Assembly: GCA_905178155.1 (NCBI GenBank)
Contig: CAJINV010000013.1
Span: 114,344 to 178,343 of the forward strand
Length of the DNA: 64,000 nt
From: Amoebophrya sp. A120
Lineage: Eukaryota > Protista > Dinoflagellata
Direction of reading: 5' to 3'
The notes below the pieces were generated by a model. The model made no database searches and had not been told where the DNA came from. It saw only the letters and a program-made list of their open reading frames with translations. Shown piece by piece: positions 3,238 to 64,000 of the stretch (positions within the stretch are counted from its first letter, which is position 1; the number at the start of each line of letters is the position of its first letter). The translations under genes were made by a program, and so were the position numbers.

Positions 3238-6200
3238 CAGATTCCTCTTTGCGGCATTGTAGTAATTCTTAAAAAAGCGAAAATAAGGATATGAACAACA
3301 CAAAGAGATGAACTTCAACGTTTGCAATTTCGTCATCTTTGATGACTACGTGCAGTTCGAAGGCGAGCAAAGCACCAGTCTTGGTCTTCAAGTGCGGATG
3401 ATTACGGAGGTCCTCGTCGGTAGGCTTGGAATTCTCTATCCCTCTGTCTTTAACAAATTTCACGCGGTCGTCGTCACTCATCTTGTCGTACTCTGCGCGT
3501 TCCTTCCGGCTTTTTCGAAGCGAATCAAAAGCTTAATATATTTGCTCAAAAATCCGCTCCCTTCGTTTATAAAAATCGGCCTCCGGATCACCTATGACAG
3601 ACTGTACTTGTTGCATCATTCCGTGATAGATCGCACGATGCTGGTCAACCTGACGATGCAAAAGGTCCTTGATACAGACACCCTGCTCATTGCCAGCACC
3701 ATGGCAACACATATCTACAGCGTCTAATGGTGGAAGAATTTTTTCTTTGAGAACAGCAAGAACTTTTGGGTACTGGGTCTCGCACGAGGACTCGGCTTCA
3801 GGCTTCTCCTTGTTATGTTTTGCGACGTGGGCGAGCCCGCGACAGTATGGGGCCTCAACACATATTCCACCGCTGCAGGTTTCGCTGCATTCTGCGTCCA
3901 GCTCGGACGCCTTTGAGAGCAAAAGCAAGGGTCTATCATAGCGGCCCGACTTTAATATCTCCTCGTTTGCCTGTTTGACAAGGTGGTACGGGTTCGTGAC
4001 GAGCGGGTATGGTGACGGTCGTCGGGTTCGTGACGAGCGTCGTATGGTGGTACGGGTTCGTGACGAACGGGTTCGTGACGGTCGTCGCGAACAAAGCGAC
4101 GAAGGGCTAGTTCTGCCGACCCACTCTTGCCGTAAGGGCTTCGCAAAATCTTCTTCAAAGAAAACCTCGGGGTCATCTGCGTCTTCGAGCGCGGCGCCCC
4201 TTGCGAGCAGCCATAGAGCAAACCGCTCCTCGAAGGCAAGGCGATCTATCGACTTCCAGGAATCGTCTCCCAAAACGGGCTTGGGGGCGTTTGGTTTGGG
4301 TTTCGGCCTGACAAGCGAAAGCTCTGCAAGCATGGCCAGAGCGGAGTCAAACACCTTGTCCTGATTCAGTGTCTTCCGGATGTCTTCTGGTGCGTTTCGA
4401 ATGCTGTTGCGCTCGTGCGCGTCGCGTCGTGCCAAAAGCCACTGCAGCAGGGTGTCCCGACCGTCGTCCGTTGCCAAAGATGGAGGGACATCTCCCTCTG
4501 CTCTCGCAATCAACTGGGCTGTGCCCCGAAGCCCTGTCCGCGCAGTCCTACCGAAGTTTTGTTCCTGAACTCTTTTGCTTTTTGGAATAAACGTTACGCT
4601 GACGTGCATGCCACCATTCTTTTCCACCTCGTCCGAAAGCTTGATGTCAGTACCCCGTCCGGAAATGTTTGTGGCAATTATGACGTCACCCGCCTGGACG
4701 ATCCTTTCTATGGCAGCATCGCGTTCCTCTTGTGCGGTGTACCTGAACAGGGATACGTTATGCCTGGAGCCGTCGGGCAATGCAGGCCCACCCTCCGACT
4801 CATGGTCGGCTGCATCTTTTGCCGCTTTTTCGAAGGCCTGGTGTATGGCATCCGCTTTCTTGATGGATTCGCACACCACCAAAACCGCACGTCCCAAAAA
4901 TGCTTCAGCGCGGCCGCGCCGGACCACGGTCTCAAGCCAGGTCTTTCCGGCGTCCTTACCGTGCAGAACAACACCCCGGAGAGTGTAAAACTGCTTTTGC
5001 TTAAAGCCGGGCACGAAAAAAAAGTCTAATCCGTACACTTCGTGCATGAGCTTCAGCGTAGCCTGATCACCGAGTGTCCCTGTCAGTCCAAAAACATGAT
5101 CATAGCCCTTGATGAACTTGACGTTCGACAGAAAGTTGGTGCTAAAGTTTTCAGGTAGCAAACGCAGACCGTGTTTGATTTTATGGCCCGGACAGATCAA
5201 AAAAATCGAATACGTATTTGCATGATCGTAAAGGGTAGTCGTTTGTATGTAGATAAGCATGTGTGCGGCCATAGATAGTCGCCATGAGGTAGCTCATGTG
5301 AAGATAAATCAACATCATGAGCTAGCTAGTTAACCTCAAGCTATCGAGTCTTGTGGATTCGCACGTCGATTCCACAAGACTAGATAGCTTCAGGCTAACT
5401 AGTTCACAGGTGCAGCTACATGTGTAGTCATCAGATTGTGAATTATCTAACACATTCATGCATATTTTCAGCTCAGAAGCTGCAACTAATGCATTCAAAA
5501 TTGCCATTCTATATTCTTCGAACGAGATGAAAAAAAAAAGATATGTCCGGGCCATAGATTTGCAAAATCTGGTGCAGCCCGCCACTGTAATGCTGGGAGT
5601 CGGAGATAGTGCCCGTATTTTCGGCGTCCACCGTGCTTAGCTCCATGGTCATGCCGTCGCCCTTCCCCCGAAGTTGGTACTGCACACCAGGTTCATAGAT
5701 AAACTGCGCATGTACGCAATTTCTGGACCAGTCATAAATGCCTCGCTCCACGATATATTTTCGATGATCACAATCGCAACAAAAACTTATTCCTTCCAAG
5801 GGTGCGGTCTAGTTGTGCTTATAACTTCATCATGCCACTTCCACTTGCATGAGCAAAAGGGTAAGCTCTCAAAAAAGCGTAGATCAAATCTAGGAGCGCT
5901 GCCGCAGACGTACCGTGCTTCTATATTCTATTGAGCAAAGTAGTGGCCATCGACAATAAAAATGCTTGTTCACCTATAGCGACTCTTGCCCGGAAGATTT
6001 ATAGTTAGTTAGTTAGTATTCCCACAGTGAAGGGGAGTGAAAGGGAAAGATCTTAGTGCTGCTCGTTGTCGGAGTAGACTTCGTCGCGCATCTTCTTCCC
6101 TTTGCACGACTTCTCGTGGTCGATCATCTTCCCAATTTTGATGGACTCGCCCCGATCATGGTAGCGCATCGCGACGTTGTTGTGGGCGAGTAGGGCCTTG

Positions 6201-9200
6201 CATTTCTCACATTTTCGGCATCGGATATATTCGCAACCTGCTGCGTCAGTGTGTAGGGCGCGCTGGGGTATTGTCGTCCTCCAATGTGCTGCGTCAGATC
6301 CATACGAGTACTTGCCTGTTGATTCATTCCACCAGTGCTGCTCCGGTCTGCATTCCCCCACCGGCTTCCCCTGGTTGTTCTTTTTTCGTCCTACCCGAAT
6401 GTAGCCATGCTCTCGATGGGCCTGGGCATGGCGCTCCATAGCTGCCGACTTGGAGTCAAACATCAGATTGCAGGGAATGCACTTGATAGGCCAGCGCCGC
6501 CCCCGGCGGGGCACTGCCTATCTCGGTGCTAATTTCCAAACGGTCAAAGCCCATGCGCACCAAGGCGACCCGAGTGGCCGCCAAGCCAGGGAAGCAAAGA
6601 AAAAAACAAAAAAAGGAAAACCAAAACGCGCAGGGCCAACAGCCCAGGCCCCCCGCGCACAGAGGCAGCGCGCCTATTTTTTTGCCTATTTCTCGCCTAA
6701 TTCCGGGGCTTTTGGTTTTCGCAGCGAAAAAAAAAAGTCGCCAAAATTAGCCAAGAAACAGGCAAACACAGGCGGGGAATCAGGCAAAAAATAGACAGGA
6801 AATTAGACAAAGAAATAGACAAAAAATTAGACAAGAAATTAGACAGGGAATTAGCAGGAAAATAGGCAGAAAAACAAACACGGCAACCGTAGGAAAAATA
6901 GCACCGAAATAGGCCCGGAATTGCCAGGGCTGGCGCCGCCCAAACTTGATCATCGGCACATGGGCACGCGGGCCCCTTGGTTGCTTTTCTCTAATGTAGC
7001 GCGGGTTCCCATTTCTCTGCAGCGTTTCCGCCCGAATGAAGGCGTTGTGCTTGTCATCCCACTCCTTGATCTTTCTCAAAATCCTGCGCTTGTGTGCTGT
7101 GTTGCTGGGCGCGGGGGCTTCGTGCTTCTCTTTTAGATGAAGCTCCATCATCTGCGTTGGCCCTCCTTTTGCCGTGCCGCAGATGAGATCCGCATCGCCA
7201 AATTTGCCGTCTGGGCCACGTGGTCCCGCAGCAATCTGCTCCGCACACCAGAGACACTGGCCTTGTGATCGATACGCCAGCGGTGCCCCATCTACTGCTT
7301 CCAGTTTGCCCACCTGTTCCTCTACATTCAGCCCATTCGCCGCAGCCTGTTCCTTGACCTTCTGAACCGTGGGCGCGTCAGCATCTCCAAAGTACTTCAC
7401 TGACAGGTCGTGCTCCAGCTGCTTCCGCTCGCCCTCGTCCTGTCCGGCCCAGTCTTTTGCCACGGCCTTGATGAAGGCCCATCGCGTTGTCGAGAAAAAT
7501 AGCCGCTTGTTCGCATGGTACAGGGATTGCGGCCCCTCCAGGTCTGGGCGTCGCCGTGCCGCTTCTACCGGTGTTTCCGCCAGGAGATGCAACATCTCCG
7601 CCGATACGCTGCAGTCACCTTGCAAGTATTTTATCGAGTCCTCCAGGAACGAGGGGACTTTTCGGCGTCTAGCATCCAGCTCCTTGAGGTTTTTGATAGA
7701 CCGCAGGAGCTGCAGAGATTCATTCTCCTGTAGTTCCCAGCCGCGGGCGTCGTTTTGCGGCTGGTATCCCGTTACCAGCGGTGGGAGAAACTGCCCCAGT
7801 AGCACCTGCCTGGTTAAGTCTGTCTTCGGTTTCCGTAACGTATGCCCCAGCCATTTCATCTGTAGATACCGCACATGATGCTCAAGCTTTGGCACTTTCA
7901 GCTGCTTCCGAATGTCCGACATCTTCTGTTTTTTCAGCACTTTCTTCCACCAAGGGATATCGAGAATTCGCATCATCATCCTGCCTTCCTCCCTTTCTAA
8001 AATGCGAAGCTCCTCTTTGCTTACGTACCTGGAGGTCATGCCGTAGGTCATCACGCTTCTGATCATCACCATTATCAACTCCCCACGCCTTTTCGAGTGT
8101 ATGCCACTGACGCCGCTGATCTTCTGCCGTAGTGACGAGTACGCGCGCCAGGACTTTTTCACCTTTTGCCGGACGTCCTCCATCGGATCCGTGTTCTGCC
8201 CAAGGTTTCGCGTTACAATTTCGGTAATGTCGTTGGCTATGCGCTTGGTTTTGTTCTCAGACGTGCCCGCCTCCCAAAGGACTTCCGAAAGGACCTTCAT
8301 CGCGTTTGAAGGAAGAAGCTCTTCCAGCTTTTCCCCGGCTTTCTTCTTTTTGTTTCGACCTTCCCGTGCCTCGTTTTCCTTGACCAGCTTCTCGAGGATT
8401 TGCCGCTGCTCTAGCTCTAGGAGGGTCGTATCGTCTGCGAACAGCAAGGTCATCAAAGCCTTGAATACCGTCTCCATCTCCATCGCACCACTCGCATCCT
8501 GCTGCTGCTGTTCCGCCGTCTGGGCCCCCGACTCGAAGACATACGCATACAATCGGTCGACCCTGTTCCAGCACAAGGCCTGCGGACTCGTGCGAAGTTG
8601 GACCCCGGCCGGCTTGGATTTCTGCAGCTGCTCCGCCTTGAGTTTATGTCGGAAGTGTTTCATGACCGCTGAATACACCATTACAAACACCAGGGGCGAC
8701 GACGCGCATCCTTCTTTCGTTCCGTTTTCTAGTGCGAACCTCTCTCCCGGCGTGTTCTTGTTGTCCGGGTCCCGAAATTCATGAACTGAACTCCGATGAC
8801 TTGCCTCTATCGCTTCCCAACATTTACTGTGTTGCAGATTGAGAGCCTGGACCGTTCCCCTGATTAAGCGTTTGTCCAGACTTGGGAATGCTTTCTTCAA
8901 GTCCACGAGCGTCACCAATACCCGCGCCATGCCATGCTCGCCATAGTGCATCATGTCCTGACGTAGCTTGTTGAAGATAGCAAGGCTCTCAATCGTCCCC
9001 CTGCTTTCCCGAAATCCGAACTGGGATTCGCAGAAGTATCCCTTATCCTCCAGAAGTCGATATAACCGATCCGAGTACAGCTTCACCACTAATTTTGTCA
9101 CTAGCGGCGAAATGACGAGAAAACGATACCCATCCGGATTCTTTGGCGATCCTTTGCCCTTGAATAGCGGCGTATCTCGGCAGAGCCGCATTCTTTCGTC

Positions 9201-12200
9201 CAGTTCGCTCATTTTGCGCGTGCTTAACTCCTTGGCTAGGATGGTCGTGAGGATCTCGAGCGAGTCCTGGTCTAAAAACTTCAGGATGCCGCCCTGCAGT
9301 CCACATGCGTCTTTCGCTTTTCCCCCGGCGGCCACCGCTTTCGCCACTTCTTCCACCTCAAAGACGTCCGGGGGCTTGTCCAGTTCTTCCAGATCTTCAG
9401 ATGTCAAGGGCTGAATGTACTTTGGTAGCTCCGCTTCAATTGGCAAGGTGTCCAAGTCCGGTCGTATCGGCGTGTTTCCCACCGCAGCGTATTGCTTGGC
9501 CGCCTCAGCAGGGGTTATCTCGCACCTCCGATCCATCTTGAGCAAGTCCATTTCGCGAAAGAGCGCCCACATTTTGGAGCGAGTTTTCGCACTTTCCGCG
9601 TATTTGTCTAGGTCCTTCACCGGCGCCTCCTTCTTTGTTTTCCCGATGAAGTGCGGCGTGTTATCTACCAAGAAGTCGTGGAAGTCCTCCAGGCTGAAGG
9701 CGCCATGGCCTCCCTTGCTCTCGATTCTGGCACGCAGGTCCTCATTGAAAAACGTGAGCAGCTCCTCCGGGGGGCTCGTCATTAGCCCAAACGTTGACAA
9801 CCTTCGAAGTTCTCCTTCATGCCTTAAGTGCTTTTTCGTTTTTACCGCCGTATCCATCTCCACCGCCCGGTGGTCGAATCTCGCCAGCGCTAGCCTTGCG
9901 CCATCTGCTTGCACCCCATTGACGTCAAAGATGCGATATCCTAAGACCTTGGTAAGCTGCTGACCTGGCACCAGAAAATAGTCCAGCTCATTTCCTCCAT
10001 CGTGCGTGCTGTGAGACGGGAGCTCCAGGTGGCTGGCTGGCTGCACCATGTTCAGGGCCAGCATCGTCGTCGCAAATTGTCGCCCGCGTGGCGTCGATGT
10101 CGCAGGTCCGTGCTGTCCTTTTATGGTAGACCCGCCAAAGAGTCGAGTCCCCACCTGCGCATTCCAATCGGCGCCAACAATCTTGGTCTTCCATTTGTGC
10201 TGCTTCATTTTTTGCGTTTCCCTTATTGCCTTGGTGAAGTTGCCGTCAAAAGCCGCCATGTCTTCTTTTGGCGATCCCGCGGTGGGGGCATAGCAAGCGA
10301 CTACTGCTAGCTCTCTTAGAAACAACGTCAATACCCGCGGCCGTGATCTCACTGCGTCCGCTGTTGTATGTAGCTGGTCTGCCTGAATTTCAGCCCGCAG
10401 CTTCTCATCCAGGATGAGGATTCCTACTCCATGCGCAAAAAGCAAATCAAATTTCGGCTTGCGTACCCACTGATACTCGCCGAACTCAAGCACGTCCTCG
10501 GCCTCCGTCATCTCCTCTTTCTCCACGGGAGAGTCAAAATCCGGCCCCATGGCTAGTTCATCCAGATGGGCTTCCACCTCCACGCAAATAGGCTGGTCAT
10601 CGTTGCCATCCTCTCCCAAGTTTTGCGGTGGCGCTTGTACGTTCGGATTTTGTTGCGGTTGTCCTTCCAAGAGGCTGTCCAGATGATCGTCATCATTTTC
10701 TTCTTCCCCTCCTGGGCCGGGGGCTTCTGGCTCAGCGCCTGGAGGAAGGATGTCCGCTGCTTCAGCGACTGCTGCTGGCTGCTTCTTGCGGTAGGCGAAT
10801 TCGGAGAGCAAAACCAATCCCCAGTCGCAGGCCCCCGCCACTCTTAACACGTGGCAGAACCGTTCTGACTCCATCCCGCTGCCATAGCAATTCACGAGGC
10901 CCGTCCTGCACGCCCAATGGCCCGCGGGGGCCTCTACCACTTCTCCTCCTACACGGTCTGGAAAGTAGTTGTGTGCGCTGTCCCCTTCCCCCTGCTGTGA
11001 CGGACTGTCTCCATCGCCTGCCCCGTCGTCTGGGCTGTCCCTCTGTTCGTCTTTTTCCTTTTTCTTCTTTTCCGCAACTTTGAAGATGTCCTTCCAGGAC
11101 TTGCTCTGCTTGCCTCCGAACGCAAAGATAGGTGGAACCACAACTGGCGCAATTGTCTCTTCTTCGGCGGATCTGCCTTCCTCGCCCTCAGCACTCTGCT
11201 CGTGTTCTGCTTGAGACTCCAGCGGCGGCGGGGCTCCTCGAGTATCGGCGTGCTGGGGCCCGTTCGCATGCTTGACTACCGCGCGGCGTTTGTTCTGCGT
11301 CTTCCTTCTTGCTTTTTTGCTCCCGACCGATGCAAAACGCTGGGGAAAGTCCTCCTCTGCCTGCGCCAACTCACATCGCCCGGCCGTCGGCTCCGATTGT
11401 GCGAGAACAGGCTCTTCAAATCCTTCCACCGCTGGCTCATCGTGCCTGGTTTTGCTCGTTCGTTTGCTGCTTGCCACCGGCCCCTGACGCTTGTGGCGCC
11501 GCTTCCATACTGCCCTCCCGTCTTTCCTGATTTGCTGCTTCGCGTGGAGTCGTCGCACCAGTCGCTGCAACATGTGCAATATCTCCTTGTCGCTTTTCAT
11601 CTGTGTCTCTCGAACCCCTAAGAGCAGCTGCACACGCTGGGCGAAGCGCCGAACCACCCATCTCGCTGGGGTTGCTGCACATCGGAGAACCGCCATCACG
11701 CCCGCCCGTTCCAATAAAATTCGTCGCCAATGGTCTGGGTCTCCCTGCTCTTTTTTGCGTCCGACGTCCGCAAGCCACATTGGTTTGGTCGGCGAGCGCA
11801 TCTTCATATGATCGGAAAAAACCAACCTGAACTCGCTATGTGGTGATTTGTCAAGGCGCGACAAATCACCATCTCCGTGTTCTGGTCCTGTAGAAGTCAT
11901 GATAATCCTGCTGCGCAGCTTCAGCCTGCGTTCGACCAGTCTCTTACGTCCTCCTCCCCACTTGGTGACGCTCAGCATCTGCAACGCATCTCGTAGCCGC
12001 ATGCTGGGGTGGTCAGGACCTGGAGTTGTCGTTGTTGTTTCCGTAGTGGATTCCAGAAAACGATGCATGATACGGGCTGAGTCGGTCGATTTTTCTGCTG
12101 TTACCGAAGACGCTGCTGCTGCTGCAGCAGTGGATTCCTGAAAATGATGCACAGCACGGCCGGAATCGGTCGATTTTTCTTCAGAATCTCGAAACCGCGT

Positions 12201-15200
12201 GCGGGGGTGGTCGGGACAGAGCAAAACCGACGCTCCATCGCCTACCGGTTCCGCTAGTCTTGCGGTTGCCTCTACAGACGTTTTGGTGGGTTCCGGACCA
12301 CAATGCACCTTCCGGGCGGAGTCGGCCGATTTTGCTTCAGAAGACGATGCCGCAGTGGATTCCTGGGGGTCGCGCGCCGAACACTCCGCTTTCCGACCGT
12401 GGCCGTCCATTCGCATCCTGGTAGATGCGCTTCCGGAACGCGTTGTATTTGGGGGAAAAGCGGACCAGAACACGACGCAGCGCGATGTGCAATTTGCGCG
12501 CAGATCGCGCACTCCGTGTTTTGGTCGACGAGACACACAGATATTTCCGATCTGCCGCAGCTTCGCCTGTTTGGCCATGTCAACCGCACTTCCGCCTCCG
12601 TGAATCTGTAGCTCGCGCATTCCGTGTTTTGGTCGACGAGACACACAGATATTTCCAATCTGCCGCAGCTTCGCCTGTTTGGCTATGTCATCCGCACTTC
12701 CGCCTCCGTGGAAGTGTAGTCTTCGAAAAAACGCAGTCTGCCGACGAAAACGAAAAACCCAGCCGGCTTCGCTATACTGATCCCAAAAACGATGCTCCTC
12801 CCAAGGTCGCAGCCCGCCACAGCAGACCGCTCGGCTCCTGGCGGATGCGGATCCCGATGACGCTGGCTTCTGAAGCCCCGGGGCGGGTTGCGGCATTCGA
12901 ACGCCGATAGGTGTGCCTTGATTTGAAGGAAAAACGACAACGGAAAAGAACGAAATCGAGGGACTAGCATCGCAGTTTGAGTGCCGCATTCCCCTGCTTG
13001 TCCCGTTCCTTGTTTGCTGCTGCGGTTTCGGGATTCTGGCCGATTCCGCTCGTGCTGTGCATCGTATGCCATCACTAGGGGGCTCATGGCCTGTTATCTC
13101 CCCGAGCTGTGGACCGTCCCGGCCGCGATTTCCACCGAGAAAATTCGCCGCAGTCCTTAACCCGCCGGGCGGTTTCCGGCTTTTCGTTGTTTTTCTTCCC
13201 CCAGAAAGAGCCAAATCGACCCCGTAGCACCGGCGGGAGTAGTCCCCTATCGCTATGTCATCGCCGTGGCATGCGGGGAACAAGCGGGCAAATTTTTCGT
13301 ACGGTCTTGCGGCGAGCCCCCGGCACCCCGTTTCCACTCGTGTTGTGCTCCGTTTGTCCATGCTGCAGACGTCTGTTTCTCTATCCTTTCCGCTGCGGGA
13401 AAGGGGTACGCGGGTCTTTCGCGAGGAGGAGGTTGTCATGCTCGCCAGGATGTACGATGCAGTCGCAGGGTGCTCCAGCATGAAGACAATGATAGAAGAC
13501 AGCGTCTGGCCACCAAAGACACAACCACGTAGCCGCACACGTTGCGGAGCACTACCAGGCTCTCTCCCACACTCACGTCGAAAAACACTTTGCGAAGCAA
13601 TGCAACTCGTGCAGGAGGCCGCTGGTACCGACGTGGAGCGCAGCAGACTTGTGAGAAGGCCTCCTTCCTGTGGTGCTTGCAATTTGGAACATGAGTTTGG
13701 AACTAGGTAGCTACGACACGACTCGACCGAGAATTTTGTATTTTTATGACTACGCGACAGCAGAACACTTTCATCGCCAAGCCTCTGCGCATTCGGCTGC
13801 CCACTTGTCAATCCGTGCGCATCCGGACCACCATGCCTTTCTTCTGGTTTTATTTGCATTTTTGTACTTTGCGTGATGGGTTGGTCTGGTTTTCCGCCGT
13901 CAAAATAGCTTACTGCGGCCGTGAAGAGTGTTAGAAGAAGAAGAAGAAAACACAGCACGCGCAAGAGCACGTCTTGCTGCCTGCTGTTCCTCGCTGTTGA
14001 TTTGCTGCCCCCACGAATTTCCTGCATCTCAAGTATGCTGCCATCCCATGTCCTGCTGCTGTGGGCGTCGGCGTCTGCGCTGGTTGTTCTTCTTGCTAGT
14101 TGGCTCTTGCTCTCTTTGATGTAAAGCGGAAAGAAGCGATTTTGTTTCCGTAGTTGAAATTTTTTGTAGTCTAGCTCTTGTCTTTCTTGTCGTCGACGTA
14201 ACTCATGTGATAGTTGCAGGTGCGTGCTTGGTGTCAAAATTCGCGCTGGAGTTTCTAGCTCTGGTCGTGTTCCTCTGCATTTCCTCGCTATATTTCTCTG
14301 TACTGGATGTAGTGTCTGGATCTGTTTTGCAAGTCGTTCGAAATCTTGTGTAGCCCCGAAAAAACTGCTGTCATTTTCCCGATGATTTTTACGCGCCTCG
14401 CTCACGCTGTGCTGTCGTTTTTCCGTTTTTTCGAATCCGGTAGTCCTGTTGTGATGTTGTGTTTCGGTTGTGTCGCTAGTTGAAGTGAAAGAAGTCGCAT
14501 TCTCCATTTGTGGTAGTTGTTCTTCGCCTTCCCTAGTCAGAGGGCCACCATCTTCCCATCCAGACGCTGCCCGATCAATGTCCTCCTCGGAGTGTTGGCA
14601 CTTCTGTTCTACCATCGTATCACGTCGCTCATGCATACAAAAATTCTCAGTCAAATCGCAACTACCAGTACCTGTTCCTCCCTTTGTTGCAGCATCATCG
14701 TCTCCAATCGCCAGCATATTCTCCCCATTCGCAATCGCAGCGGGGCCTTGCAAGTCCTTGATTTTTTGCAGGTTCTCCGCGCGCTGTGAATCTACCGTAG
14801 CAACCCTCGTCTTTTCCATTTCCAGCTTGGAAAGCATAGCCTTCTTCTGCTCCTCCGGCATGCCCAGCGCCTGGAATCCCATGAACATGTGCATCAGACT
14901 CGTGTTGCTCTTGGATGTTTCAATGTCCATCTGCTGCCCCTCCGCCATCAAAGACATTTGCGTCTTGAGTTGCCCGATCTGCTTGGTGTTTTCAACCTGA
15001 ACAGCACTGATCTCCTCCTTGATCTCATTCCGCAGCTTGTCGTCGCGCTTATCCAGCATCTCCTCCAGCTGTTTGCGAGTAATGAACTCGTCTGGGCCTT
15101 TCGCATCCAGATTTCTCGGCGCCTGCTGCTGCCCTTTGGTTCTGGGGGAGATCGGGTCCGGTTTCGGGGGAACCGTGGTGAGGGGGTTGAGGCGAATCGC

Positions 15201-18200
15201 CTCTTCTTTGTCCGTTCTCCGAAGGGTCGACACAACGAAACGCAGCTGCGGCGTGCCGTCAGGCTTGTGATCCCAACAAACTTGGCCAATGAAGCAGTCA
15301 CCAATCGCCACCTCATAGTCCGTTACACTTCGAAAGCGCCCTTCAAGCTCCACCGTTTGCCCGAACGCTTGATGCGCCGCGCCTTGGCTTGCTGTCATTG
15401 GATCATGGTCAAAAGAGGCTGGGGTCTCCAGTCCCATGATACAGGTGCGCACTCCTTGGATTTTCAGCTTTAGCAGATGATATCCCGGCGGTAACATGTA
15501 CATGCCTTCACTGGCCACCAGGAAGTACTCCACCTTTACCCCGGCCGTTACCTTCGAGTAGTCAATTCCGCCCTGCTGATTCACGTAGTCATTGTGCACC
15601 ATGAAGCCTAGATCCTCCTTCACATAGGATTGCCCCGTGGGAGTGCGGTGCACTCCATCCACATCAAACCTAACCTTCGGATAGAAGGTCTTGAAAATCT
15701 TGGTCGGCGTTTCCTCATTCTTATCCCAAACATCCAAGACCAAAGACAGCACGTGTTGCTTCATGCGTTCCATCCCCATGTTCATGAGCATCGCGCCCTC
15801 GGTGGAGTCCTTCACAAGCTTCGGCAGCGTGACATTGCAGAAGTCATAGGCCTCGAACCAAGTCATCCACTTTTCATCCTCTACCACATGCGCCATGAAG
15901 TTGTTGAAGTCGAACTTGCCCTCGTGCATGTCCGTGTCGAATTGGTCCGCCTCGATCATCGTGCAGACGCGCTCCGTGACCGCTTTCGCAGACCGGATCT
16001 GCTGCATATCTCGCTTCCCCATGCGAAAGACATTTTCCGCGTATAGTTCCTCCATGGAGCAATGGTCACGCCCATTACTAGATGCGTACTGCTGCTGGTT
16101 CGGCGTTTTGTCTTCGCATTTGCTGTCATCCACGAGCGTAGGCTTTTTGTCCTCAGCCGAACCGTCGCCCAGCAGTCCTTCTGGGATCGGAGGAATCTCG
16201 CCCGGGGGGTCGACGTTCGGATTCGTTTCGTCTTTCATCTCGGCGCCATCAGCTCCCGCATCTTCGCCTGCATTTGCAGCAGCCTTTTGCGCCGCAACCC
16301 GCTCGGCCTCGAACGTTTTCGCGTCCGTATTCAAGATGTCCAAATCGTACATCAGGCGCAGCTGCTTCACAAAGTTTGCTGCTTCCCCGTTAGTGACTTC
16401 CTTTTTCTTCTGAATTTCGCCGGCGGTGATTTTGCCAACAATGTGGTCGCGCAGCTCCAGGACCGCTTTGTTATCATCCACCTCGTTCTTCTTTTGCATG
16501 TGCATCATGCCCATCAAATCCACAGCAGCCTGCTCGCTATTCTGGGTGAAGTTGTACAGCGTGGAGGATGTTAGGTGCCTAACTGTTTGCGTGGCATCTC
16601 CCGGTCCCAGCGGCTCGCTGCGTTCTACTGCGAAAGACGACGTTTTTGTTTTGGTTGCTTTTATGACTCTGTTCTGAAGTTGGCGAGGTTCGAAATCAAG
16701 TCAAGAGGGTAAATAGACAAATAAAAATCCGAAAGGGAATATTGCGGGCGTATCACTGTTTTTTCGGTTAAAGAGTTTTTTTTTTTCTGGTGTTAGTGCT
16801 TAATAAAACAAGTCAGGACCAGGAATTTTTTTTTTTTGTTTTTTTGCTTTTCGATCTTTCTCGTGCTTTTTCAATCTACGGAAAAAAAATTTTTTTTGTG
16901 TCGTCTGTAATGTCGCTACTTGGTCGGGCATCTAAGCTATTGCAATCTAATAAATCTCTGTGTCTTAACAACTCCACGGAGGAGCAACCTGTAGACCTGC
17001 ATTAACGCTCGTGTTAGAGAGAGTGGCGGTCATCACTCAATCTTGAGTCAAAGTAGACTTTAACATTTATACAAATTTTCACGGGGGGAAATATGGCTTT
17101 CTAGTTCCGCCAGAGAGGCAAGGGGTGCGACAGGCTGTGTCGCGAGTTGAAAAATGCATGCACCTCAACGCTTTTGTTGATGCAGGTTCTTCACGTTGCT
17201 GCAGCCCGACCCTTGGCAGGGAAGATACTTCCATCATGATAATGATTCAAGTGATAGAGCCGCATATATGGAGCCACGTTTTTGTTGTTCGGATCGTCAC
17301 CTTGCCTGACCTGCGAAATCTGCTCATCTGTAAGCTTCTTTCCCGGCAGGTGGCTCTTAGCGTGCCACTCGAAGTCGCGGACGCTCTTGCGTAGCACCTC
17401 CTCCAGCTTCTGTGTGAGAAAGTCTGTCCAATCCTTGTACAAACGCTCCCCCGTTTCCGGATCCCGGCGGTTTTCGATCGCTTGGGACTCGTTAACGAAG
17501 ACGTTCTGCGCCTTTAGCTCGTCCTTGTATGTTTCCCAAGTCTTTATCGTGTGGAGCTGTGGCGGCACTTCGAAAGTTAAAAGCTCTCCGTCCACCTCGA
17601 ACTGCTTGAGATGTTGCTTTTGCGCCTTCATAATTAGCCACACGGAAGCAACGAAGTTGTGTAGATGGTGAGCACCCAGCAACGGGGTTGACAGCAATGC
17701 TTGTGACGCCTTCCCGTCAACCATGAGAGAGTCGCTCTCATCAATAATGGCAATGTCGTATGGCCGCGTGTCGCGATCCCGCGCCTCATCTTGTTCTCGA
17801 GAGAATCGGTGTCGCAGGTCAGCCCACTGGAAAAGACTGGGAGAACCATACACCACGTCGCTGCCTGCAAATCTAGTGTTCGTCCCAGTCGAGCGCACCT
17901 TCTTGTTCGGAGTCCGAATGTAATCTGACCCAATACGGCATTGCGCGAAAAAAAACAAGGCAGGTTGAGTATGAAAAGAAAAGAGAGAAAAGTCTGAGTC
18001 CGACTAGTATCTATGAGACTCATGATGTAGAATTACAGTTGTTGTTCAACATTGCCTGCGTCTTCATCTTCCTTTGACGCAGAATGATTTCCATGAGCGT
18101 AACAGCAGCATGTACTGCGCTGCAAAGTCATGGTTGCTGGCGGCAACGGCACATATTGCGTCATCTTTCCTGGCAATTGTGTTGCGCATCTTGGTTCTCA

Positions 18201-49700: not shown

Positions 49701-52700
49701 TTAGGTAGCTCGGGAAGAAAGACGTGCCTCTGCCGTGCTCAGCAGCGTCGCTTTCTCGGGCGTTTTGAATGCATCAGGGAGTCGGAATCGCAGAAATTGT
49801 TCCGGAGCCGAAAACCGTGACAGGCGCGCGGCACTCGTCTGCCAGGTCACTTCCGGCGCAACGCTCTTGCGGCTTCGCTCGTATTTGGACCATGCGCCAG
49901 CATCGCATGGTGGGCATCTTCTGCGTGCGAGCTCCGGACAGTTCATTAAAGCGAAACCCACTAAATTGCCTATTTCCAGTGGCTCGCCACACAGGTTCAA
50001 GAAGGCATCTTGGACTTCAAGCGAGGCCCGAACGGCTTTCGGAAACAGGTAGTATAAGTCTACACCGGAATCCGTCTCGCGTAGCGCTGCGAGTGCGTAT
50101 TGCTCTGCGTCCTCCTGAATGGAATAGAAAGGCGAATTCTCGTCTTCCAGATTCATGTGGAAAAACAAAACGGCGGAAAACAAAGGGTTTTCGGATTTGA
50201 TTCCTGCTAAAATGACGCTGCGCTCCAGGTTGCGCCCACTCCGAGTGACGGTTTCCACGTAGAACTCTCGCTGGACAAAGGGATCGCTTCGCATCACCTG
50301 CGGTATTTCATCCAGGCTCTTTGGTACCTTACCCGGATGACGCAGTCCAAGAGAGGTGCGCAGGTCCCGCAGGGTTAGGCGTACAATCGCCGGTACATCA
50401 GCAACTAGCGGATGAATGTGCTCGTGGTTCGCTACAGCAAGGCGGAGCGCAGCTTCTAGCAGTTCCGAGTCGTCGCATGGGTTGTCGTTTGTATACGGCC
50501 AATAAGTCTTGAGGAAGCGCTTGTCTTCGTAGGGTGGTGTGGTCGGCTCATCCAACTGCGCCGAGTGCGACAGAAACATCTCTCTGATCAGATGGTTATG
50601 GACAAGAAGAAGATCCACATTCCCCATGGTTTATTTATACAAATACACGTAATTTGTCACGCTGCTGTCGCGGATAGCGCGATCAATGCCATTTCTGTAT
50701 GTCAAATATCGAATGTCAATAGAAGAATCCTGGAACCTGCGCTCTGTCCTGGATTTTTTTCACATTCCAGCGCGAGCGCAAGGCGTGTTGACGCAAAGCG
50801 GGCTGCCACATATGCTCCACCCACCACAGAAGTGATAAGAAGACCAAGCCGTGATACTAGGGATCAAAACAAGAAATGCACAACATTCATCAACAAATGT
50901 ATCTTAACACGTGTCGGGAAGGTGAAGGCTTCGCTTCCTTTCATACGCAGCATCGCTTTGCAGCGTCTCTGGTGCGTGGTGCAACAAACCGCCTGATTTC
51001 ATCGCTATCTTGACAAGGTTTCTGTCGCTTCGAAAGGCCGGTGGGAGGAACTCGAGCATTTTTCCGTCCAGCCGTAGTACTTCTTCTACAACGCCAGGGT
51101 AGTTTGGCATGTCAGAGGAAAGAAATTTCAGAAGCGAAGGATACACCATTAATGCACGTGAAGACAGATCCGGTCTTGCCTGTCCTTGCAGCAACATGTC
51201 CCGCACACTTTCGTCGTCGGCATTCCAAAATACTTCGGCACATGTGTCCTCCATTAGCTGGACTATGAAGTCAGGATCTTTGCGAAGAGCGCTCCCGGCA
51301 AAAAGGAGGGCGTCATGATTGTGCGCAACTGCGCTTCTTACGATCTCCCGGTTTTGACGAAGCCGTGGACTCGCATGTTCGAGGGCTAGTCCATCAAGTT
51401 GTACGCAACGAGACACTACTTCTTCCGAGTCACGAATTCGATCCTGCAAAGGCGATTCATACTGCAACACCAAGGCGGACAGCTCTTCCGGAACACTGTC
51501 GTACTCCTCTTCTTGAACGTCATCAAAGCGGGCTGCTAGACCTGGAAGCGTGAAAGGTTCCCACACACCGACGTCGATCGGGTTTTCGCAATGTGGGTAG
51601 TGGTGGTGCTGTAGGCAGCATACTGCATTACAGACGTGTTCGCCGTCACCGCAGAAGTCACTTATTTGAATGTAGCGCTGCATCAAGCATGCTTGTCTGC
51701 GGACGGTTTCATCACGTTTCTGATAGCGAAGCCGCTTGTTCCCGTCCTTGTACTTTAGCAGCGCCAGCGAGCAAGACGAGCACTGGTGTGTGCGGGAGGT
51801 CCTTCTGATGCGCGCCGGGGCGACATTGTCAATCGCAATCGTTGTGAGTGATCCCGGGCAGTGGCTCTGAGATGGAGTTCTGGCTGCCATACGTTTACCT
51901 ATCGGTACTTGAATCTGCCAGTCGGTGCGCAGCATCGGGCTGGCGCCATCGAAAAGTTCTCGCAGGAGGGCTTGGTCGCATCGGAAGTCCTTCTTGGTCA
52001 CAAATCGAAGTGCGTACGGGTTTTCGCGCAGTGCATCGGCGACAATGTGTTTGTCAACAAGCTCAGGATCGCAGTACTTGAGTGCAAGACCGTTGGATTG
52101 AACTGCAGTCCGTAGCAGGTCCCTGGTCTGATTCTCTGAGTATGCCGTTGTCGCCAACATGCGTCTTTTCCTCTCGTGCCTGCAGAATGCTGGCCCAAAC
52201 CCAAAGCAACGCTAGTTCATAAAGGTGCCTATTGTTATGTTGGAAAATACGCAGATAACACACGTACTGCAATACAAAAACGTGTGCTGTCTGCCATGCA
52301 TAACTCCCTAGCTTTGGTGTCCGGGACACGAATGATGCTGCGTGGAGCTGAGAGATGCATGCGTATGGCATTTTCATAATGAGTTGAAGAACTTAAGAGC
52401 TGGAACTCCGTCTTTTTGGGCCGCTGCCATGGCCAGCTCGATAGATTCTCGATAGGCTTCGGCGACGTAACGCAGGACCCATGGCTTGTGCGCGATGGCC
52501 AGTCGAATGAGATCATGATGTTCGTGGAGCTCACCACGGAGATATTTGTACGCCCAACCATTTTGCTCAATCGCCGAGAGAGCAATATCGAAATACTCTA
52601 GCGAGGAACGAATCGGCACGGTCGCGAAGCGAAGGGACCGCCAGTCTTTTCTAACGGCAACCTCGACCACCTCTGGATCGTTGCGGAGCGTCGGCGATGC

Positions 52701-53977
52701 GTATCGAAGCGCAAGGCCACTGATGTTGCAGGCGAGTATTGTGAGGGGCTTGCTTTGTCGAAACAGGGCTTGACTGTCTCCCATCTCGATCCGCTTGGCA
52801 TTTGATGACTCGTACCAGAGAAGCGACGACTCCACAGTCAATTTCACGAGTTCTTCACGAAACTCCCAATCTAAAGATCCAAAGATCACATCTTCGCCAA
52901 AATGTGGATAGATATCTCGGATGTTGTCTCCACACAAAAAACTAACCTTTCCAAGCATAGTCCTGGAACCCATACCCATTTATTCTAGATGTAGTGAAAA
53001 ATAAGTGTCATTGAAGCAGGCTGTCCCCGTATGCACGAATCTGCAATGGGAACGCGATCGGTCTGCAATCTTCAAGATGGTATTTAGTCATACATCAACA
53101 GCAGGCTTGATGATGATGCAAATCTTCAGTCACAGGGCTTGAAAGGGAAGTTTCTCCTCGCGGATATTTTTTCAACTAGGCACATGTCACCCAACTCAAA
53201 TCTACGACAACAACATCCACCGTCAAAAACCTCGTTATGCGCGTCGTCCGGAAGATAGTATTCATCCCAGGTATCATTTTCAGCTTCGCTATCATACACG
53301 ATATCTCCGGCGTCAACAGGGTAATGGAACTCATGATCGTTACTTTTTCGCAAGAAACTCAGGCTCCTTTCAGAGATGCGCTGCAAATGAGTGCGAGCAA
53401 AGTCGAGGGCTTGGTGAGCGCGACCGTCGAAGGCAACCTGAATTTCGCAATCTTTCTCTTCGTCAGCTATCTCGCCGATCGGAATCGGGAAGCGTCCATC
53501 CCATACTATGCATCTTTCTTCGTCCTGGAAAAATGTAGAAGTGCTGCTCGAGCTCATGGCTTTCTTTACATAGTTGGTCTCACCCTCAGCTTTCTTGCCA
53601 CGCCCATGGGGCCCGACAGATGTAGTCGCCACTGTAATTGGCTCGGATGCTTCTTCATCACAGCGTCCCGAAAAGCTGGAGCGAACTTTTTCGATGATTT
53701 CTGTTGGCAAAACAACTCCTTGACCAGCCAATGACTTTTGTGCACCGCTTCGAACTGCAACCAGGTGGGTCTTCACTTCGCGGAGCAAAATCTGTTTTTC
53801 GTCTCTTGGCACAATAATAGTTCCCAATGTGTTTCCGCCAAGATCGCTCACTTTCACTTGCTTGCAGGAAGCGTTTTCTAATACCTTCGCAGCTGGCTCT
53901 GTGTCGTGGGGAAAAAAAACGTTTCCTGTTCGCAGGTGAGCGTCGGCACCGAGGAATGCGTGAACACTAGGAGCCAT
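49701..53977 (-). CDS. DUF4116-repeat protein, copy B (4 exons)
   Basis: Close paralog of A including flanks; intron stems at 52927-53166, 52141-52378, 50597-50945. Confidence 0.85.
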
Positions 53978-56821: not shown

Positions 56822-59800
56822 CTAAGCACCTAGACCAAGTAAGAAGTAATAGAAATCGCGTCGCTCTTTTGCATTCTGGACCTGAGCTGCCTTCTCTGGG
56901 TTCATGTGCGTCCATGGAATGCGCAACCTGAGACACCTTGTCATAGGACTGTATTCGCTGCTAGTGTGCCAATTTATTTCAGGCACGCTGCATTTACGAT
57001 TCCTCTCAAAGATAGACCAATCTCCGGCGTAGTTGTTGCGCCCGTTCATACGGACAAGTTCGGTACAATGCATCAAACACAAACCCATCATATTTCCGAT
57101 TTCTAGTGGTTCGCCACACAAGTTGAGAAAGGCATCTTGAATCCGAGTCGAGTGGCGAACGGCTTTTGGAAACAGAAAATAGACTTCAGCTCCCCAGTCG
57201 GTTTCCTCTAGGCTTGTTAGCGCGTACTGTTCGGCATCTTCCCTCGACGAGTAGAAAACTGAGGCCTTATCGTCGATGTTCATGTGGACGAAAAACTCAA
57301 TGCAGAACGCCTGTGTCCGCTTCAGTCCGGTGATGATCGTGGAACTGGGTAGATTTTGTCGGCTCCTTCTCACCGCTTCGACGTAAAACTCACACTGCAC
57401 TATCGGATCGTTTTGCAACCAAGCAGGAACTTCATCAAGGCCGTTCAACGTTTTGCCCGGATTGTCCCGACCAACGAACGTGGCACGGAATTGCGGCAAG
57501 GCCGTGTAAAGCAGGGACGGAAAACGGTGCAAAAACGGCCGAACATCTTCTTGAGTCGCAAGCCCAAGTCGCATTGCAGCCTGCAGCAAGGCTGGATGGT
57601 CGGTGCAAATGCTATCATTCTTGATTTGGTCCCAAGGTGCTTTGACGGCGTAGCACAGCTCCCACGGGCAGGAGCCGGGTGTGTCAAGCTTCGCGGCGTG
57701 AGCGAGAATCATGCGCGCTGCGAGTTTGCTATGCACAATAGAGTGCTGGCCTCCTTATGTCTTTCGTCCAAATCATCTGGGTGCTTTTGTCTCTTAATTT
57801 TTTGTCATGATGCCCGACCGAAAAAAACGCTACCAAAGTTGTTCAGTACAAAATTCTTTTCGTCGCAGCTATGCATGGCCATGAATTTTTTATGCTAGTA
57901 CATGATCGGCCCTCGTCATTATGTTTGCAAGTAAAGACGAGAAAGACCCATTGGAAATAAAAAAACAGTTGAGCAGAACAAGGGGCCAGCTCTCTGTGCA
58001 TATTCACGGTCAGTTCGCAGGGATTGATGCGCGTCGTTCAAAGAGCCTCCCGACGCGATTGCGATAGCCACGCAATCTCGGTTCCCTTGGATTGCACCGT
58101 CTGCAAAGGCAAGGACCGTTCCATCAATCTTCAAAATTGGCAGCACAATCGCGGGGTCACCCTTTGATGTGTTTGGGGCAAACTGCAATAAAGACGGATA
58201 CGCTCGCAAAGCTCGCATGTGAAAATCGCACATACTCTTCGTCTGAAGTAACACTTTCTGCACATTTGTCGCGTCTGCGTTCCAGAATGCTTCCCTGCAA
58301 GCTCCTTCCATCAACTCAAGTACAAAGTCTGGGTCGGTGCGGAGATTTTCAGCCGCAAACAGCAGGGCATCGTGATTCTGAGAGACTGCCTCCTTCACGA
58401 TTGCACGGTTTCCACGAAGTCGCACGCTCGCGTGCTCGAGACATAATCCATCAAGCTGAACACAGCGCCGAACGATCTCTTCGTGATCACAAACAGCTTC
58501 CGACGGCGATTTTTGCAGTATGAGGCACGGAAGGTCCTCTGGCACATCGTCAAATTCCTCTTCTTGGAGATTTGCGAAGCGCTCCTCCAATACCGGACTG
58601 TGCTCACCCTCCGCGGTGGCCGGATAAATATGCTTCTGCTTGAAGCACACAGCATTGCAGATATGCTCGCCGTCTCCGCAAAAATCAGCAACGTGGATGT
58701 AGCGCTGCATAAGGCAAGCCGTTCGCCTGAGTGGCTCATAACGCACGTGCCAACTGCGAACTCGCGTATGGTAATGGTCTTTTATTGCGTCCACACGACA
58801 AGAGGAACAAAGGTAACGCTTGGATGACAGAGAATTACTAGTGGAGGCCACAGTCAAGCAGTTTCTGTCGCTTTCAGCTCCTTCCTCGCAAACACCAGAA
58901 CCACATTTCATGGCTGTCCCATCAACTTCAACATCGCTGCTCCAGGGCGAAGCGTAGATCGGTTTTCGACTATATGTTCCCGCTTCAGGAGGCACGGCCG
59001 TGACGCTCCTACACATGTTTGCGTCGTCGCTATTTAGTTTTGGCGGAGGTGTGGGAAGGTGCCAGTTTGTTCGCAAAACGGGACTTGGACCGCGAAACAT
59101 TTTCAGCAGTACGTCCACGTTATTGCGTATTTCGGCGTCCTGCACAAATCTTAGTGCGTACGGGTTCTGATGCAGGGCGATATCAACTATGGACGTGTCG
59201 ACTAGCTCTTGCGCACAATACTTTAGCGCGAGGCCATTAGACCGCACAGCGGTTTTCACCAGCTCCTTGGTTTGCGAGTGCGGGTTGGAGAACTTCAGCG
59301 CAGGGACACCGTCCACCATGGCTGCTGCAGTCACTACTTCTCGACAGTGTCGGTTCGGTTCGGGAGCATAACGTAGGACCCACGGTTTGTGCTCGACCGC
59401 CAGGCGAATCAGCTCCGTACAATGTCTAAGGTCTCCACACAGATACCTGTACGCCCAGCCGTTCTGCCGGATCGCGCACCGAGCGATTTCCGCATAAGTC
59501 AATGACTAACGAAGCTCGGCACTTGCAAAACGCAATGAGCGCCAATCAGCTTGCACTGCAACCTTGACGACTTCAGGATCTTGACGAAGTGCTGGAATAG
59601 CGTAGCGAAGTGCCAACCCATTGATCTCGCATGCTATGGTGGTAAGTTCTTTGCTCGTGCGAAAGAGAGATGAACTGCTCCCCATCTGAATGCGCTTCGG
59701 ATTCGAGGAATGCCTCCAGCGCATGGAAGCCTCCACTGAAAGCTTGGACAACTCCTCCCGGAACTCGAAATCTCCTGTGACGGGTTTCGGATCCACGCCG

Positions 59801-60642
59801 TGAGGGTACATTTCTTTAATTTTCAAGAGCAGACATCCTGTGCCATCATCATGGCAACAATCCCCGTGGTAGCTGTTTTGCGCCGCGAGTTCAAAATTGT
59901 CTGCGGCGTCGCCTCCCACGTAGCCATCCTCAGAGGCAATAGTGAAGTCTGAAACGGGTGGGTTTGCAAAAAGAGCTTGATTCCGGAGAAATTCCATGTC
60001 TTCATCGGATATGCGGAACAACCTCTCTTTCGCGTATTCAAGCGCCGCCTGTGCTCGGTCATCAAAAACCACCTGTATTTCTGTCAATTGGTCCTGGTCA
60101 TCGAAGCTCACTGGAATGTCGAAACGTCCGTCCCAGACGAGCCAAGTAGCCTTTCGCGATGAAGCTCTGTCTTCGTTGTCGGAGGCCGGGTCAAGTGGTT
60201 CTGCGAGCACGGACTCACCGGCGCCAGAAATGTGTTCACTACAAGCTTGAGGTCGTGCAACAGGGTCGGGCTCCTCCACTTGCGGCTGCGCCAGATCTTT
60301 GTCCTCATGAGCTGGAGATACCGGCGACCGATCCTTCTCATCAGCACCTTCCGAACTACCCGCAACAGTCCCTGCCACGCCTTTACGCTTGCGCATGACT
60401 TTTTGCTGGACCAATGCTCCTATTCCGACAAGCGAGCTCCGATCTGGCAAAACACTGGCAAGATGTTTTTTCACGTGCCGCAGCTGCACGTAATCAGTCG
60501 CAGATGGAACAAAAAGCTTGCTGATAGTGTTACCCGCAAGATTGTTGATTCTCAGGCACTTTGTACCTCCCGCAGTGCCAGAACCCTCATCCCACCGATC
60601 TGCCTCTGCCGGACCCGGAGGTTGTTGTTTCTTAGCGCGCAT
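56822..60642 (-). CDS. DUF4116-repeat protein, copy C (1 intron; in-frame TAG at 59506-59508)
   Basis: Colinear with A/B and continuous across their introns 1 and 2; intron stem at 57730-58002. Confidence 0.8.
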
Positions 60643-61679: not shown

Positions 61680-64000
61680 CTAAGGAAATGGAGACGCCAA
61701 CACCCTGGCTCGACGCGCCTCCGCCGTATTGAGAAGGCAAGCATTTTCAGGATTCGTGTGAGAAGCCGGCAAGCGCAGTCGCAAAAAGTTCTCCGTTGAG
61801 CTCACGAGCTCAGTTGTCTTCCAACTGGCTTCTGGCACCGAGCTTTTCCGGCTTCGTTCGAACTTGGACCATGCTCCGTTGTAGACGCTGCACCTGTTCC
61901 TAACAAGCTCTGTGCAGTGGTGGAGGGCAAACCCGAGCATGTTTCCGACTTCAAGTGGTTCACCTACAAGATGAAAAAAAGCATGCTGCACTGCTGCTGA
62001 ATCGCGGACAAGCTTTGGCAACAAGAAGTATACTTCCGCACCCCAGCTGGTGTCACGAAGAGTTACGAGTGCATACTTTTCTGCGTCTGCAGATGATGAG
62101 AAAAAGACGGACGATTCATCCTCCGTTTCCATGTACAGGAAAAAAGTCAGACAGAATGCTTGCGTTGTCCTCAGCCCGGTCAGAATCGTGTCGTGGTCTA
62201 GATTCCGGCCACGTTGAGTGACGGCGTCAACATAGAACTCACACTGCACCAAAGGGTCGCTCTGCATCTCAGAGGGAATATCAGCCAGGTGCTGGGGGTA
62301 TTCGACTAGGGGCAAAAGTCCACGTGCACGGCGCAACTTTGTCAGTGTGTCGTGCACGACTGACGGATTATGCACTAGCTCTGCTGGAATGTCCTTGTAG
62401 CTTGCAAGCCCGAGTTGCAAGGCAGAACGAAGCAGGACATCATCGTAGCAGGCGTCTTCCTTACTAGCCATGGCGTGCTCCCAATAGGGGGTCGGGTGAA
62501 AGTACAACTCGTTCCTTTTGACCATCCAGCCATCACACCGCACAGGCGTAAAAGGGTCGGCAAGCTTTGCAGCTTGTGATATGATTTGTTCCCGCAACAA
62601 GCAGTTATGCAAAACAAAAATAAAGAAACCTATCTAACCCCACCATTCAAAATTGTGCTTGCTTGTTTTGCTTGCGGGCATAGCGAAGCGCTCGCGCTTC
62701 TAACGTGGACGGTCGAAGCGTTCGCACCTCACAGGCTGCGAATCATGCCTGGAATAGCCTTTTTTTAGAAACGAATCGCACACAAAGACCAGCGATCTGC
62801 ATTGCAAATGAAGACCAGCGCTTGACCTGTCATTTCTTTTAGCGCAGCACGGAGGCCAAGCATTCTCTTGATTCAATTTCGCGAAGCGATGTGACCAAGT
62901 GCAAGTCGTAGAAGAAAAGAGGGGAAAAATAGATACTGCCATGCATAATCGGGGTCTTTTTCGAGATATTTGTCGGCGTGCCAAAGGAATCCACCAGCGT
63001 TCAGCGCAACACGCACAAGGTCTTTGTCGCGCTTCATTGACGAGTCCACGAACTGAAGGGCTGTGCCGTCGATCGCTAGCAACGCTGCAACGTTCGACCG
63101 ATCGCGCTTGAAGTCCTCACTGGCGAACTCCAGTAGACCGGGATACGCCTTCAGAGCTCGGAGGGACAGGCTTCTCTCTCCTTTTTCCGACAGCAAAACG
63201 TCCTGCACTGCCAACTTGTCGGCATTCCAGAACACATTTGCGCAGGCTTCTTCCATTAATTCCACAACGAAAATCGGGTCCTCACGGAGATGTTGCGCAG
63301 CGAAGAGCAGGGCGTCGTGATTCTGCGCGACTGCCTCCTTGACAAGCCCTCGATCGCCTCTGATGCGGGAACTCGCGTGCTCGAGGCACAGCCCGTCCAA
63401 ACGAACGCAAGAGAGAACAATACAGTCGTCGTCGCAGACATCCTTATTGCAGAAGTCTCGAAGAACCAGGACACCGAGGTCCTCCGGAACCGAGCCAAAG
63501 GACTCTTCCTGCTGCTGCTCAAAATGTTGCGCGAGAAACTGGTTGGGCTCCGGCTCAAATTCGACATATATGTGCCCTAGCTCGTGGCAAAGCGCATTGC
63601 ATACGTGCTCCCCATCTCCACAGAAGTCGGGAACGTGAATATAGCGCTGCATTAGGCACGTGTGGCGACGCCTTGTTTGATTGTGCTTGTAGCAACTGCT
63701 AGAGCGGCTGGTGTCGTTAAAACGGAGTTGCGACAAGAGGCAACTCGAGCAAGAGCAAGGTCGCACCTGCGTCGCGATACCGCAAGGAGATTTCGTATGA
63801 ATCTGGTTGTTCCTCGTGTTGCGCACCGTATGGCCGCTCGCGCCGTCCAGAAGAAGAAGATCTTCGTGCTGTTCCAGAGAGCAGCCAACATGGGCAGTAT
63901 CGCAATCCGTGCTCATGCAGCGTTGGCGTTCGCACATCCCGCTTCCAAAGCGTTCATCTGGCAGACACTGTCCTGGAAGAAGATGCCAATCGGTCCGCAG
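61680..64000 (-). CDS. DUF4116-repeat protein, copy D (5' part outside the window)
   Basis: Shares CLMQRYIHVPDFCGDGEHVCNA and GEPLEVGN...ERSRKS motifs; intron stem at 62606-62947. Confidence 0.85.

Follow-up and report, generated by a model that had tools for sequence, protein, structure and literature searches.

The window analysed here is a 64,000-nt stretch of the genome of the dinoflagellate Amoebophrya sp. A120 (contig CAJINV010000013.1, positions 114,344 to 178,343 of the forward strand). It holds 14 candidate introns bounded by TAT...ATA inverted repeats, which we propose are removed at a fixed register, N-TAT...ATA-NNNN, the first cut falling 1 nt before the element and the second 4 nt after it. 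We regard such a register as probable, with good confidence. The cut would be fixed relative to the ends of the inverted repeats, which may be recognised either as a paired stem or by their linear sequence. The reading that we favour, with a probability of about 0.5, is that a relaxed U2/U6 spliceosome reads linear signals borne by these ends at the fixed register, with pairing of the ends as an aid. Around 65% of the RNA-supported introns of A120 are non-canonical, and their splicing is unexplained. If true, one positional rule would reduce the chaos of their border dinucleotides to N-T...NN and make correct gene models possible. It would also explain how transposons could enter exons in bulk and harmlessly, since any TAT...ATA element, in either orientation and in any 5-bp target, would be a perfect intron. 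A fixed rule would make the unexplained splicing of these published elements testable. The elements represent a real, largely published class, to which we add a positional rule that is likely new.

Inserted elements and the predicted length removed

An earlier note on this DNA had named stems at 5182-5556, 19320-19736, 26539-27209, 28407-28814 and 37805-38132, together with eight introns at three sites of genes encoding DUF4116 proteins. Except for 26539, which it cited as an exception in length, it described them as starting with TAT and ending with ATA or a near match. All of them are present. Our candidate set comprises the 12 introns of that note, the exception that it had named (26539), and one further stem absent from its list (5756-5958); a stem at 17970-18289 was kept outside the count. 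The genes traced in the window, all on the minus strand, are four paralogs encoding DUF4116 proteins (A to D) and one long gene for a SecA-like helicase. At the proposed register, the introns would occupy 5178..5557 and 5752..5959 in the SecA-like gene, and 19316..19737 (with a weak stem), 26535..27210 (with a strong one), 28403..28815 and 37801..38133 on the same strand. In the DUF4116 genes, also on the minus strand, they would occupy 47243..47504, 46453..46699 and 44929..45277 (introns 1 to 3 of paralog A), 52923..53167, 52137..52379 and 50593..50946 (introns 1 to 3 of paralog B), 57726..58003 (intron 3 of C), and 62602..62948 (intron 3 of D).

Read on the sense strand, all 14 candidates start with TAT and 11 end with ATA; the variants are AGA in intron 1 of paralogs A and B, and AAA at 19320. 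By comparison, if 11 slides are allowed, 8-11 of the roughly 9,100 positions of the window have an exact TAT/ATA pair at a given spacing (0.1%), and 2.4% have one if a single mismatch is tolerated. The flanking 5-nt repeat is intact (5/5) at 5182 and 37805 and decayed at the other sites (0-4/5), as had been described, and the inner run of A of the terminal repeat is decayed in several old introns. The claim that the introns are unrelated inside fails for the three A/B pairs, whose interiors align (z 16-46, 91 pairs tested). In addition, the young element at 37805 belongs to a multicopy family of about 320 nt. The introns of A and B are thus homologous, and the 12 introns of the earlier note represent seven insertion sites.

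We used the end of the 37805 element to collect 23 loci (115 kb) from one related assembly. Relatives of this element, the only one of the window that was searched, occur in X9 contigs and, at 65-80% identity, in these loci. Among 81 strong TAT...ATA stems chosen blind to their flanks, 42 carry an exact 5-bp flanking repeat, and repeats of 3, 4, 6, 7 and 8 bp are found at 1, 1, 0, 1 and 0 of them, respectively. Many of the remaining 39 resemble cross-pairs of neighbouring elements, and shuffled sequences gave 4-9 stems. A wider parse, in which the repeat contributed to the score, returned 134 elements, 98 with a perfect repeat. The 108 elements kept in the fold and family analysis fall into 22 interior families, and nearly all (100-104 of 108) have A at positions 11-13 of the terminal repeat. 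Both orientations relative to the transcript are present in all seven families with at least four copies (e.g., 18:7, 12:9, and 11:5). Judged by their sequence, these elements are short, MITE-like (miniature inverted-repeat transposable element) insertions, resembling non-autonomous DNA transposons; their inverted ends are TAT...ATA, and the target-site duplication measures 5 bp. Small size, inverted ends, a duplication of fixed length and insertion in either orientation are features that they share with DNA transposons bearing terminal inverted repeats (TIRs). We noticed no autonomous partner in the window or in the 115 kb of loci, although no search aimed at a transposase was made there, and the terminal pattern had no matches in viral contigs. 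A TIR element with integrase-like ORFs that has been reported for A120 (PMC12130899) would be a candidate for this role. Many of the related elements carry nested inverted repeats, and one gene (L008:160-5027) has fourteen TAT...ATA elements in less than 5 kb, separated by exons of about 30-170 nt.

The length that would be removed is that of the element plus 5 nt. Continuity of the frame requires an excess of 2 modulo 3 in 13 of the 14 introns, in agreement with the earlier claim that removal of the stem plus 5 nt restores the frame everywhere except at 26539. For the introns at 19316 and 28403, the frame is the evidence at hand; three introns of the window are without a reference sequence for length scoring. 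In the SecA-like gene, +5 outperforms +2 and +8 with 41 of 41 homologs at 5182; at 5756, +5 is best with 8 of 13 and +2 with 3 of 13. Frame arguments in this gene are weaker than they appear because it contains in-frame stops and an 11.2-kb retroelement within an exon. Both +2 and +8 score lower than +5 at each of the eight DUF4116 introns. The reference for introns 1 and 2 is paralog C, which lacks both and had been proposed as a length standard for these two sites. For intron 3, we used P0128, an annotated paralog named Amoebophrya sp. A120; P0127 shows the unspliced flank of this annotated paralog. A protein with the same source name shares 87% identity with a portion of the final exon of paralog A. 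A search for longer proteins containing exon 2 of paralog A found none, and the protein search with exon 3 returned distant DUF4116 proteins only.

In the related genome, where 133 distinct junctions were examined, 26 of the 28 with a confident frame need 2 modulo 3, i.e., +5. This supersedes a coarse count of open reading frames in which the length classes barely separated (122 versus 96-104 of 134). Removal of the element plus 5 nt joins up to nine junctions in one open frame; the host genes include those of SNF2 and ArfGAP proteins, and the positions of the SNF2 profile continue over one junction (174-225, then 228 onward). A few junctions argue against the common length. Two of the 28 confident ones do not fit +5, and the only misfit of the window, 26539, needs +4, or +5 with a downstream frameshift, since +5 opens only 77 codons there; the codon model gave no choice of frame downstream of it. 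The value +5 is the element plus one copy of the 5-bp target-site duplication. The total, therefore, needs no splicing rule, and the rule concerns where the cut falls.

Probable position of the cut

Where the duplication is intact, the six possible cuts are equivalent in the mRNA, and it is the decayed sites that discriminate between them. A cut immediately before the element (cut 0) would create a stop at intron 2 of paralog A (TAA) and of paralog B (TAG), as had been pointed out; these two introns are one ancestral site. The same cut also creates a stop in locus L008. From the other side, intron 1 requires cut 0 or 1 if the Lys in common with paralog C is to be kept, and P0128 reads Ala-Ala-Leu over intron 3, whereas cut 2 would replace an Ala by Asp; intron 3 of paralog B agrees with this annotated junction at cut 0 or 1. 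In locus L015, a stop arises from any cut of 3 or more. Cuts of 2 or more place a Pro in strand 2 of a kinase in locus L013, at a position where Ala is presumably the conserved residue. The assignment of L013 as a kinase comes from weak matches to PDB sequences (E at least 0.09), although kinases make up 60 of the 60 matches listed; its 21-residue exon was not recognised by Pfam. At 5756, cuts 1-3 score slightly highest. Furthermore, the alignment of one X9 contig ends at 46700, with four letters left over, where the 1+4 junction of intron 2 of paralog A would begin; this is a single record with a depth of 2.7, whose status as RNA is a guess. A single offset, cut 1, satisfies every bound set by the stops and the paralogs; this narrows the N(1-2)-stem-N(3-4) geometry of the earlier note to N1-element-N4.

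Published data point in the same direction. Table S4 of Farhat et al. 2021 (PMC7789003) gives nine predominant RNA-seq-supported classes of non-canonical introns in A120, all of which start with N-T and none with TA; in A25, the nine predominant non-canonical classes of that table all start with TT. The text and legends of that paper describe A120 introners of about 240 nt, in many families, with TAT inverted repeats, an inner A run, direct repeats of 3-5 nt (5 bp in Fig. S19), and non-canonical ends. They place the repeats 1-5 nt from the splice sites and conclude that there is no clear signature and that the sites are variable. The window elements share the TAT repeats, the inner A run, the direct repeats and, in the case of 37805, the membership in a repeated family. 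They differ in that the published repeats vary in size and the published splice sites are variable or unknown relative to the hairpin, whereas here a duplication of 5 bp is the rule throughout, and the register appears to be constant at 1+4. Our assignment to this class follows sequence criteria, and splicing would here be deduced from the genome sequence and one annotated paralog junction. The TAT stems and 5-bp repeats were thus already published (Farhat et al. 2021, PMC7789003), and the new point is likely the fixed 1+4 register. A fixed register is not stated in the literature searched, outside which most subscription papers lie, and the figures of Farhat et al. may show part of it.

The border dinucleotides seem to play no part in this register. 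In 85 perfect target duplications, counted after leaving out two loci of unclear strand, G is found at position 5 in 23 and AG at positions 3-4 in 8, and no duplication has both. GT/GC-AG could be read, in any register, in only 2 of the 85 (GA donors were not counted). There is no border-dinucleotide bias, and the insertion target is unconstrained. Consistently, for each of the eight DUF4116 introns, the GT/GC-AG pair that scores best among those free of stops and within 40 nt falls 9-32 points short of the 1+4 junction; no canonical pair exists at 5182, and canonical alternatives tie with 1+4 at 5756. The gene parser picked no canonical introns and provides no evidence on those. These results support the earlier claim that splicing is independent of GT-AG and, for the old sites, of an intact repeat. 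The introners of Micromonas, Aureococcus, Symbiodinium and Polarella (PMC11282704, 10.1101/2020.10.14.339549) share TIRs, a target-site duplication, the gain of an intron upon insertion and, in some cases, both orientations. As described in these sources, they differ in taking GT/GC/GA and AG from the element or from the duplication. This limits the choice of target and allows the register to shift; we observe no such dependence here.

Several results weigh against a constant cut 1. A codon-likelihood test on 27 decayed repeats, from which weak parser calls had been filtered, gave 3.9, -0.1, -0.4, -2.5, -2.2 and -4.1 for cuts 0 to 5, leaning to cut 0, and the upstream base fits position 5 better in six of seven sites. 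When scored with P0128 only, itself a gene model, intron 3 of paralog D favours cuts 2-4 by 2 points and that of paralog A favours cut 0 by 1 point. The classes of Table S4 depend on how the aligner placed the junctions, and CT-AC and AT-AC are possibly aligner-favoured. Finally, no spliced junction was found in either stretch checked, where the X8-X10 contigs are sparse. A hand count of the GC-to-AT polarity of repeat mismatches gave 11 versus 11 at positions 1-4 and 4 versus 1 at position 5. The raw RNA runs X5-X7 have no reads on 18500-38400; neither this nor the sparse contig coverage bears on expression. In Table S4, six of the nine leading non-canonical classes of A120 are one base off GT-AG; this may reflect a drift of older elements to canonical ends, or aligner bias.

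How the ends may be read

The elements occur in both orientations, and the splicing signals must therefore sit in the inverted ends. The 1+4 register would give the intron U at +2 and A at +3, in A120 and A25 alike, as in the canonical GU-A with the requirement for G+1 relaxed, and the A located 7 nt upstream of the 3' cut would be a candidate branch point at a fixed distance. Having two copies of the end, an element would supply both signals in either landing orientation, and its removal would leave no scar. Mass colonisation of exons would be explained because any insertion carries both signals and leaves no scar. Pairing would bring the termini together, and need not act as a ruler. Among intron-poor eukaryotes, a constrained distance between branch point and 3' site offers a parallel (PMC2483917), in that the 3' cut lies at a limited distance from an upstream signal. 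The systems described there keep AG and a strong branch consensus, whereas the branch point at A-7 is here only hypothetical. In A120, the U2, U4, U5 and U6 small nuclear RNAs were found and U1 was undetected (PMC7789003). That a relaxed U2/U6 spliceosome is itself the reader of the inverted ends is, in our opinion, not quite an even bet.

Changes in the terminal positions bear on this question. In 107 elements of clear strand there are none at U+2 and none at A-7, compared with 2 and 5 at the mirror positions. The changes thus show a weak tendency to leave U+2 and A-7 intact, rather than to preserve pairing. Three points count against a linear reading by the spliceosome. Locus L010, whose plus strand we set by what we take to be a DHHC motif, adds one change at A-7, which breaks the asymmetry. 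The asymmetry was noticed post hoc and amounts to 1 versus 7 (two-sided p ~0.07, computed by hand). Lastly, lariat formation and the use of the spliceosome are suggested by a single feature of the sequence, the alignment of U+2 and A+3.

Alternatively, the same 1+4 cut could be set from the paired terminal helix by its structure, either by a structure-specific endonuclease and a ligase or by a variant of the spliceosome. We consider this unlikely, although it survives better than the other rivals. It fits orientation independence and the missing terminal dinucleotides equally well, and the failure to detect U1 in A120 (PMC7789003) also speaks for it. The terminal pairs have probabilities above 0.5 in 40 of the 58 young elements folded (the first 60 were given, of which two were too long). 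TATG/CATA is kept at intron 3 of the four paralogs, even if the interiors of C and D no longer align to those of A and B, and the only kind of change found at positions 1 and 3 of the 3' arm (twice at the last A, once at A-7 in L010) is A to G, by which a U-G pair is preserved. There is also a precedent in the nonconventional introns of euglenids, for which a cut at a set distance from the helix has been proposed and which have conserved pairs at +4,+5 / -7,-6 and are excised as circles (PMC3935182, PMC11282704). As described there, they share with the window elements non-canonical ends, a terminal stem at a set offset, border-blurring repeats, and a proposed MITE origin. They differ by having CA/TG at these positions and purine/pyrimidine borders, whereas here TAT lies at +2..+4 and ATA at -7..-5, with no border preference.

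The earlier note had inferred that the splice sites are measured from the RNA stem, which is possible but the less well supported reading. The sense strand lacks the excess of G-U over A-C that pairing of the RNA would predict (66 versus 81 over positions 1-15, p 0.25). Positions 4, 5 and 7 are paired in less than half of the 108 elements, and the third position of the 5' arm is unpaired in five. In the window, the ensemble probability of the terminal pair is below 0.2 in 7 of the 14 stems and above 0.5 in the other 7. Hence, the tests lean weakly to the linear-sequence reading. More generally, and only tentatively, we suggest a mode of splicing that ignores both terminal dinucleotides and acts at a fixed distance from transposon ends. 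In its strongest form, this would be a helix ruler, independent of the spliceosome or U1-free; A25 (U at +2) would share the principle, and the likeness to euglenids would be convergent.

A second rival keeps the elements and drops the constant register, with a cut that would lie 0, 1 or 2 nt ahead of the stem and differ between introns or with the local sequence. The paper on A120 introners says as much, since the legend of its Fig. 3 calls the sites 'variable' and that of Fig. S23 gives 1-5 nt (PMC7789003). The lean of the codon test to cut 0 agrees with this, and the bounds on the cut come from different introns, with no single intron of the window excluding both 0 and 2. However, cut 1 alone meets all these bounds, the TA start is missing from the nine top classes of Table S4 (PMC7789003), and the ambiguous mapping caused by intact duplications would be enough by itself to produce apparent variation. 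We regard a variable cut as distinctly improbable. The last rival, ordinary insertions spliced via nearby GT/GC-AG pairs or left unspliced in dead genes, is largely refuted and very improbable: for 12 of the 13 introns examined, stop-free in-frame pairs do lie within 40 nt, stops are present in the SecA-like gene and in paralog C, and no RNA junction was seen, but the canonical pairs score far lower at eight of eight DUF4116 introns and tie only at 5756, the up to nine joined junctions and the continuous SNF2 profile of the related genome speak for removal, and published RNA-seq of A120 already counts 65% of introns as non-canonical.

Host genes and other features of the window

The DUF4116 paralogs are located at 44052..48329 (A), 49701..53977 (B), 56822..60642 (C) and 61680..64000 (D, traced for its 3' part), all on the minus strand. 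Paralog C has an in-frame TAG (59506-59508), borne out by a DNA contig with zero differences. Single in-frame TAG or TAA codons with apparent coding sequence on both sides occur, besides this one, at 30284-30286, 23056-23058 and 3533-3535, also on the minus strand, and the simple reading is that these are pseudogenes. The helicase part of the SecA-like gene (2345..20892, minus strand) is broken by stops and by the retroelement, and is probably dead. The retroelement itself (5999-17226, minus strand) has an open reading frame of 3306 aa (6780-16700, RVT_1), a tail of CTAA repeats, and a 7-bp target-site duplication. In the same gene, an intron with provisional borders interrupts the SecA DEAD domain at 17970-18412 (minus strand); its GT donor may lie at 18412, and it contains the TAT...ATA stem 17970-18289. 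The intron at 5182 contains a 36-bp hairpin (5326-5402) stronger than its own terminal stem.

Other repeats are of different kinds. A high-copy repeat at 55049-56125 reaches a depth of 190-290 in X1, compared with about 25 elsewhere; its inverted TATCTA ends are short, it is rich in CACTAGT-like repeats, and it lacks a 5-bp duplication. Two near-identical tandem coding duplications span 30284-38124, with N gaps at 32423 and 35936, and represent either a recent duplication or an assembly artefact. Near the start of the window, a perfect 60-nt GC-rich palindrome adjoins CCCTAAA units that we take to be a telomere-like motif (together at 1395-1480), and there is a long A-rich tract of low complexity at 1570-2280.

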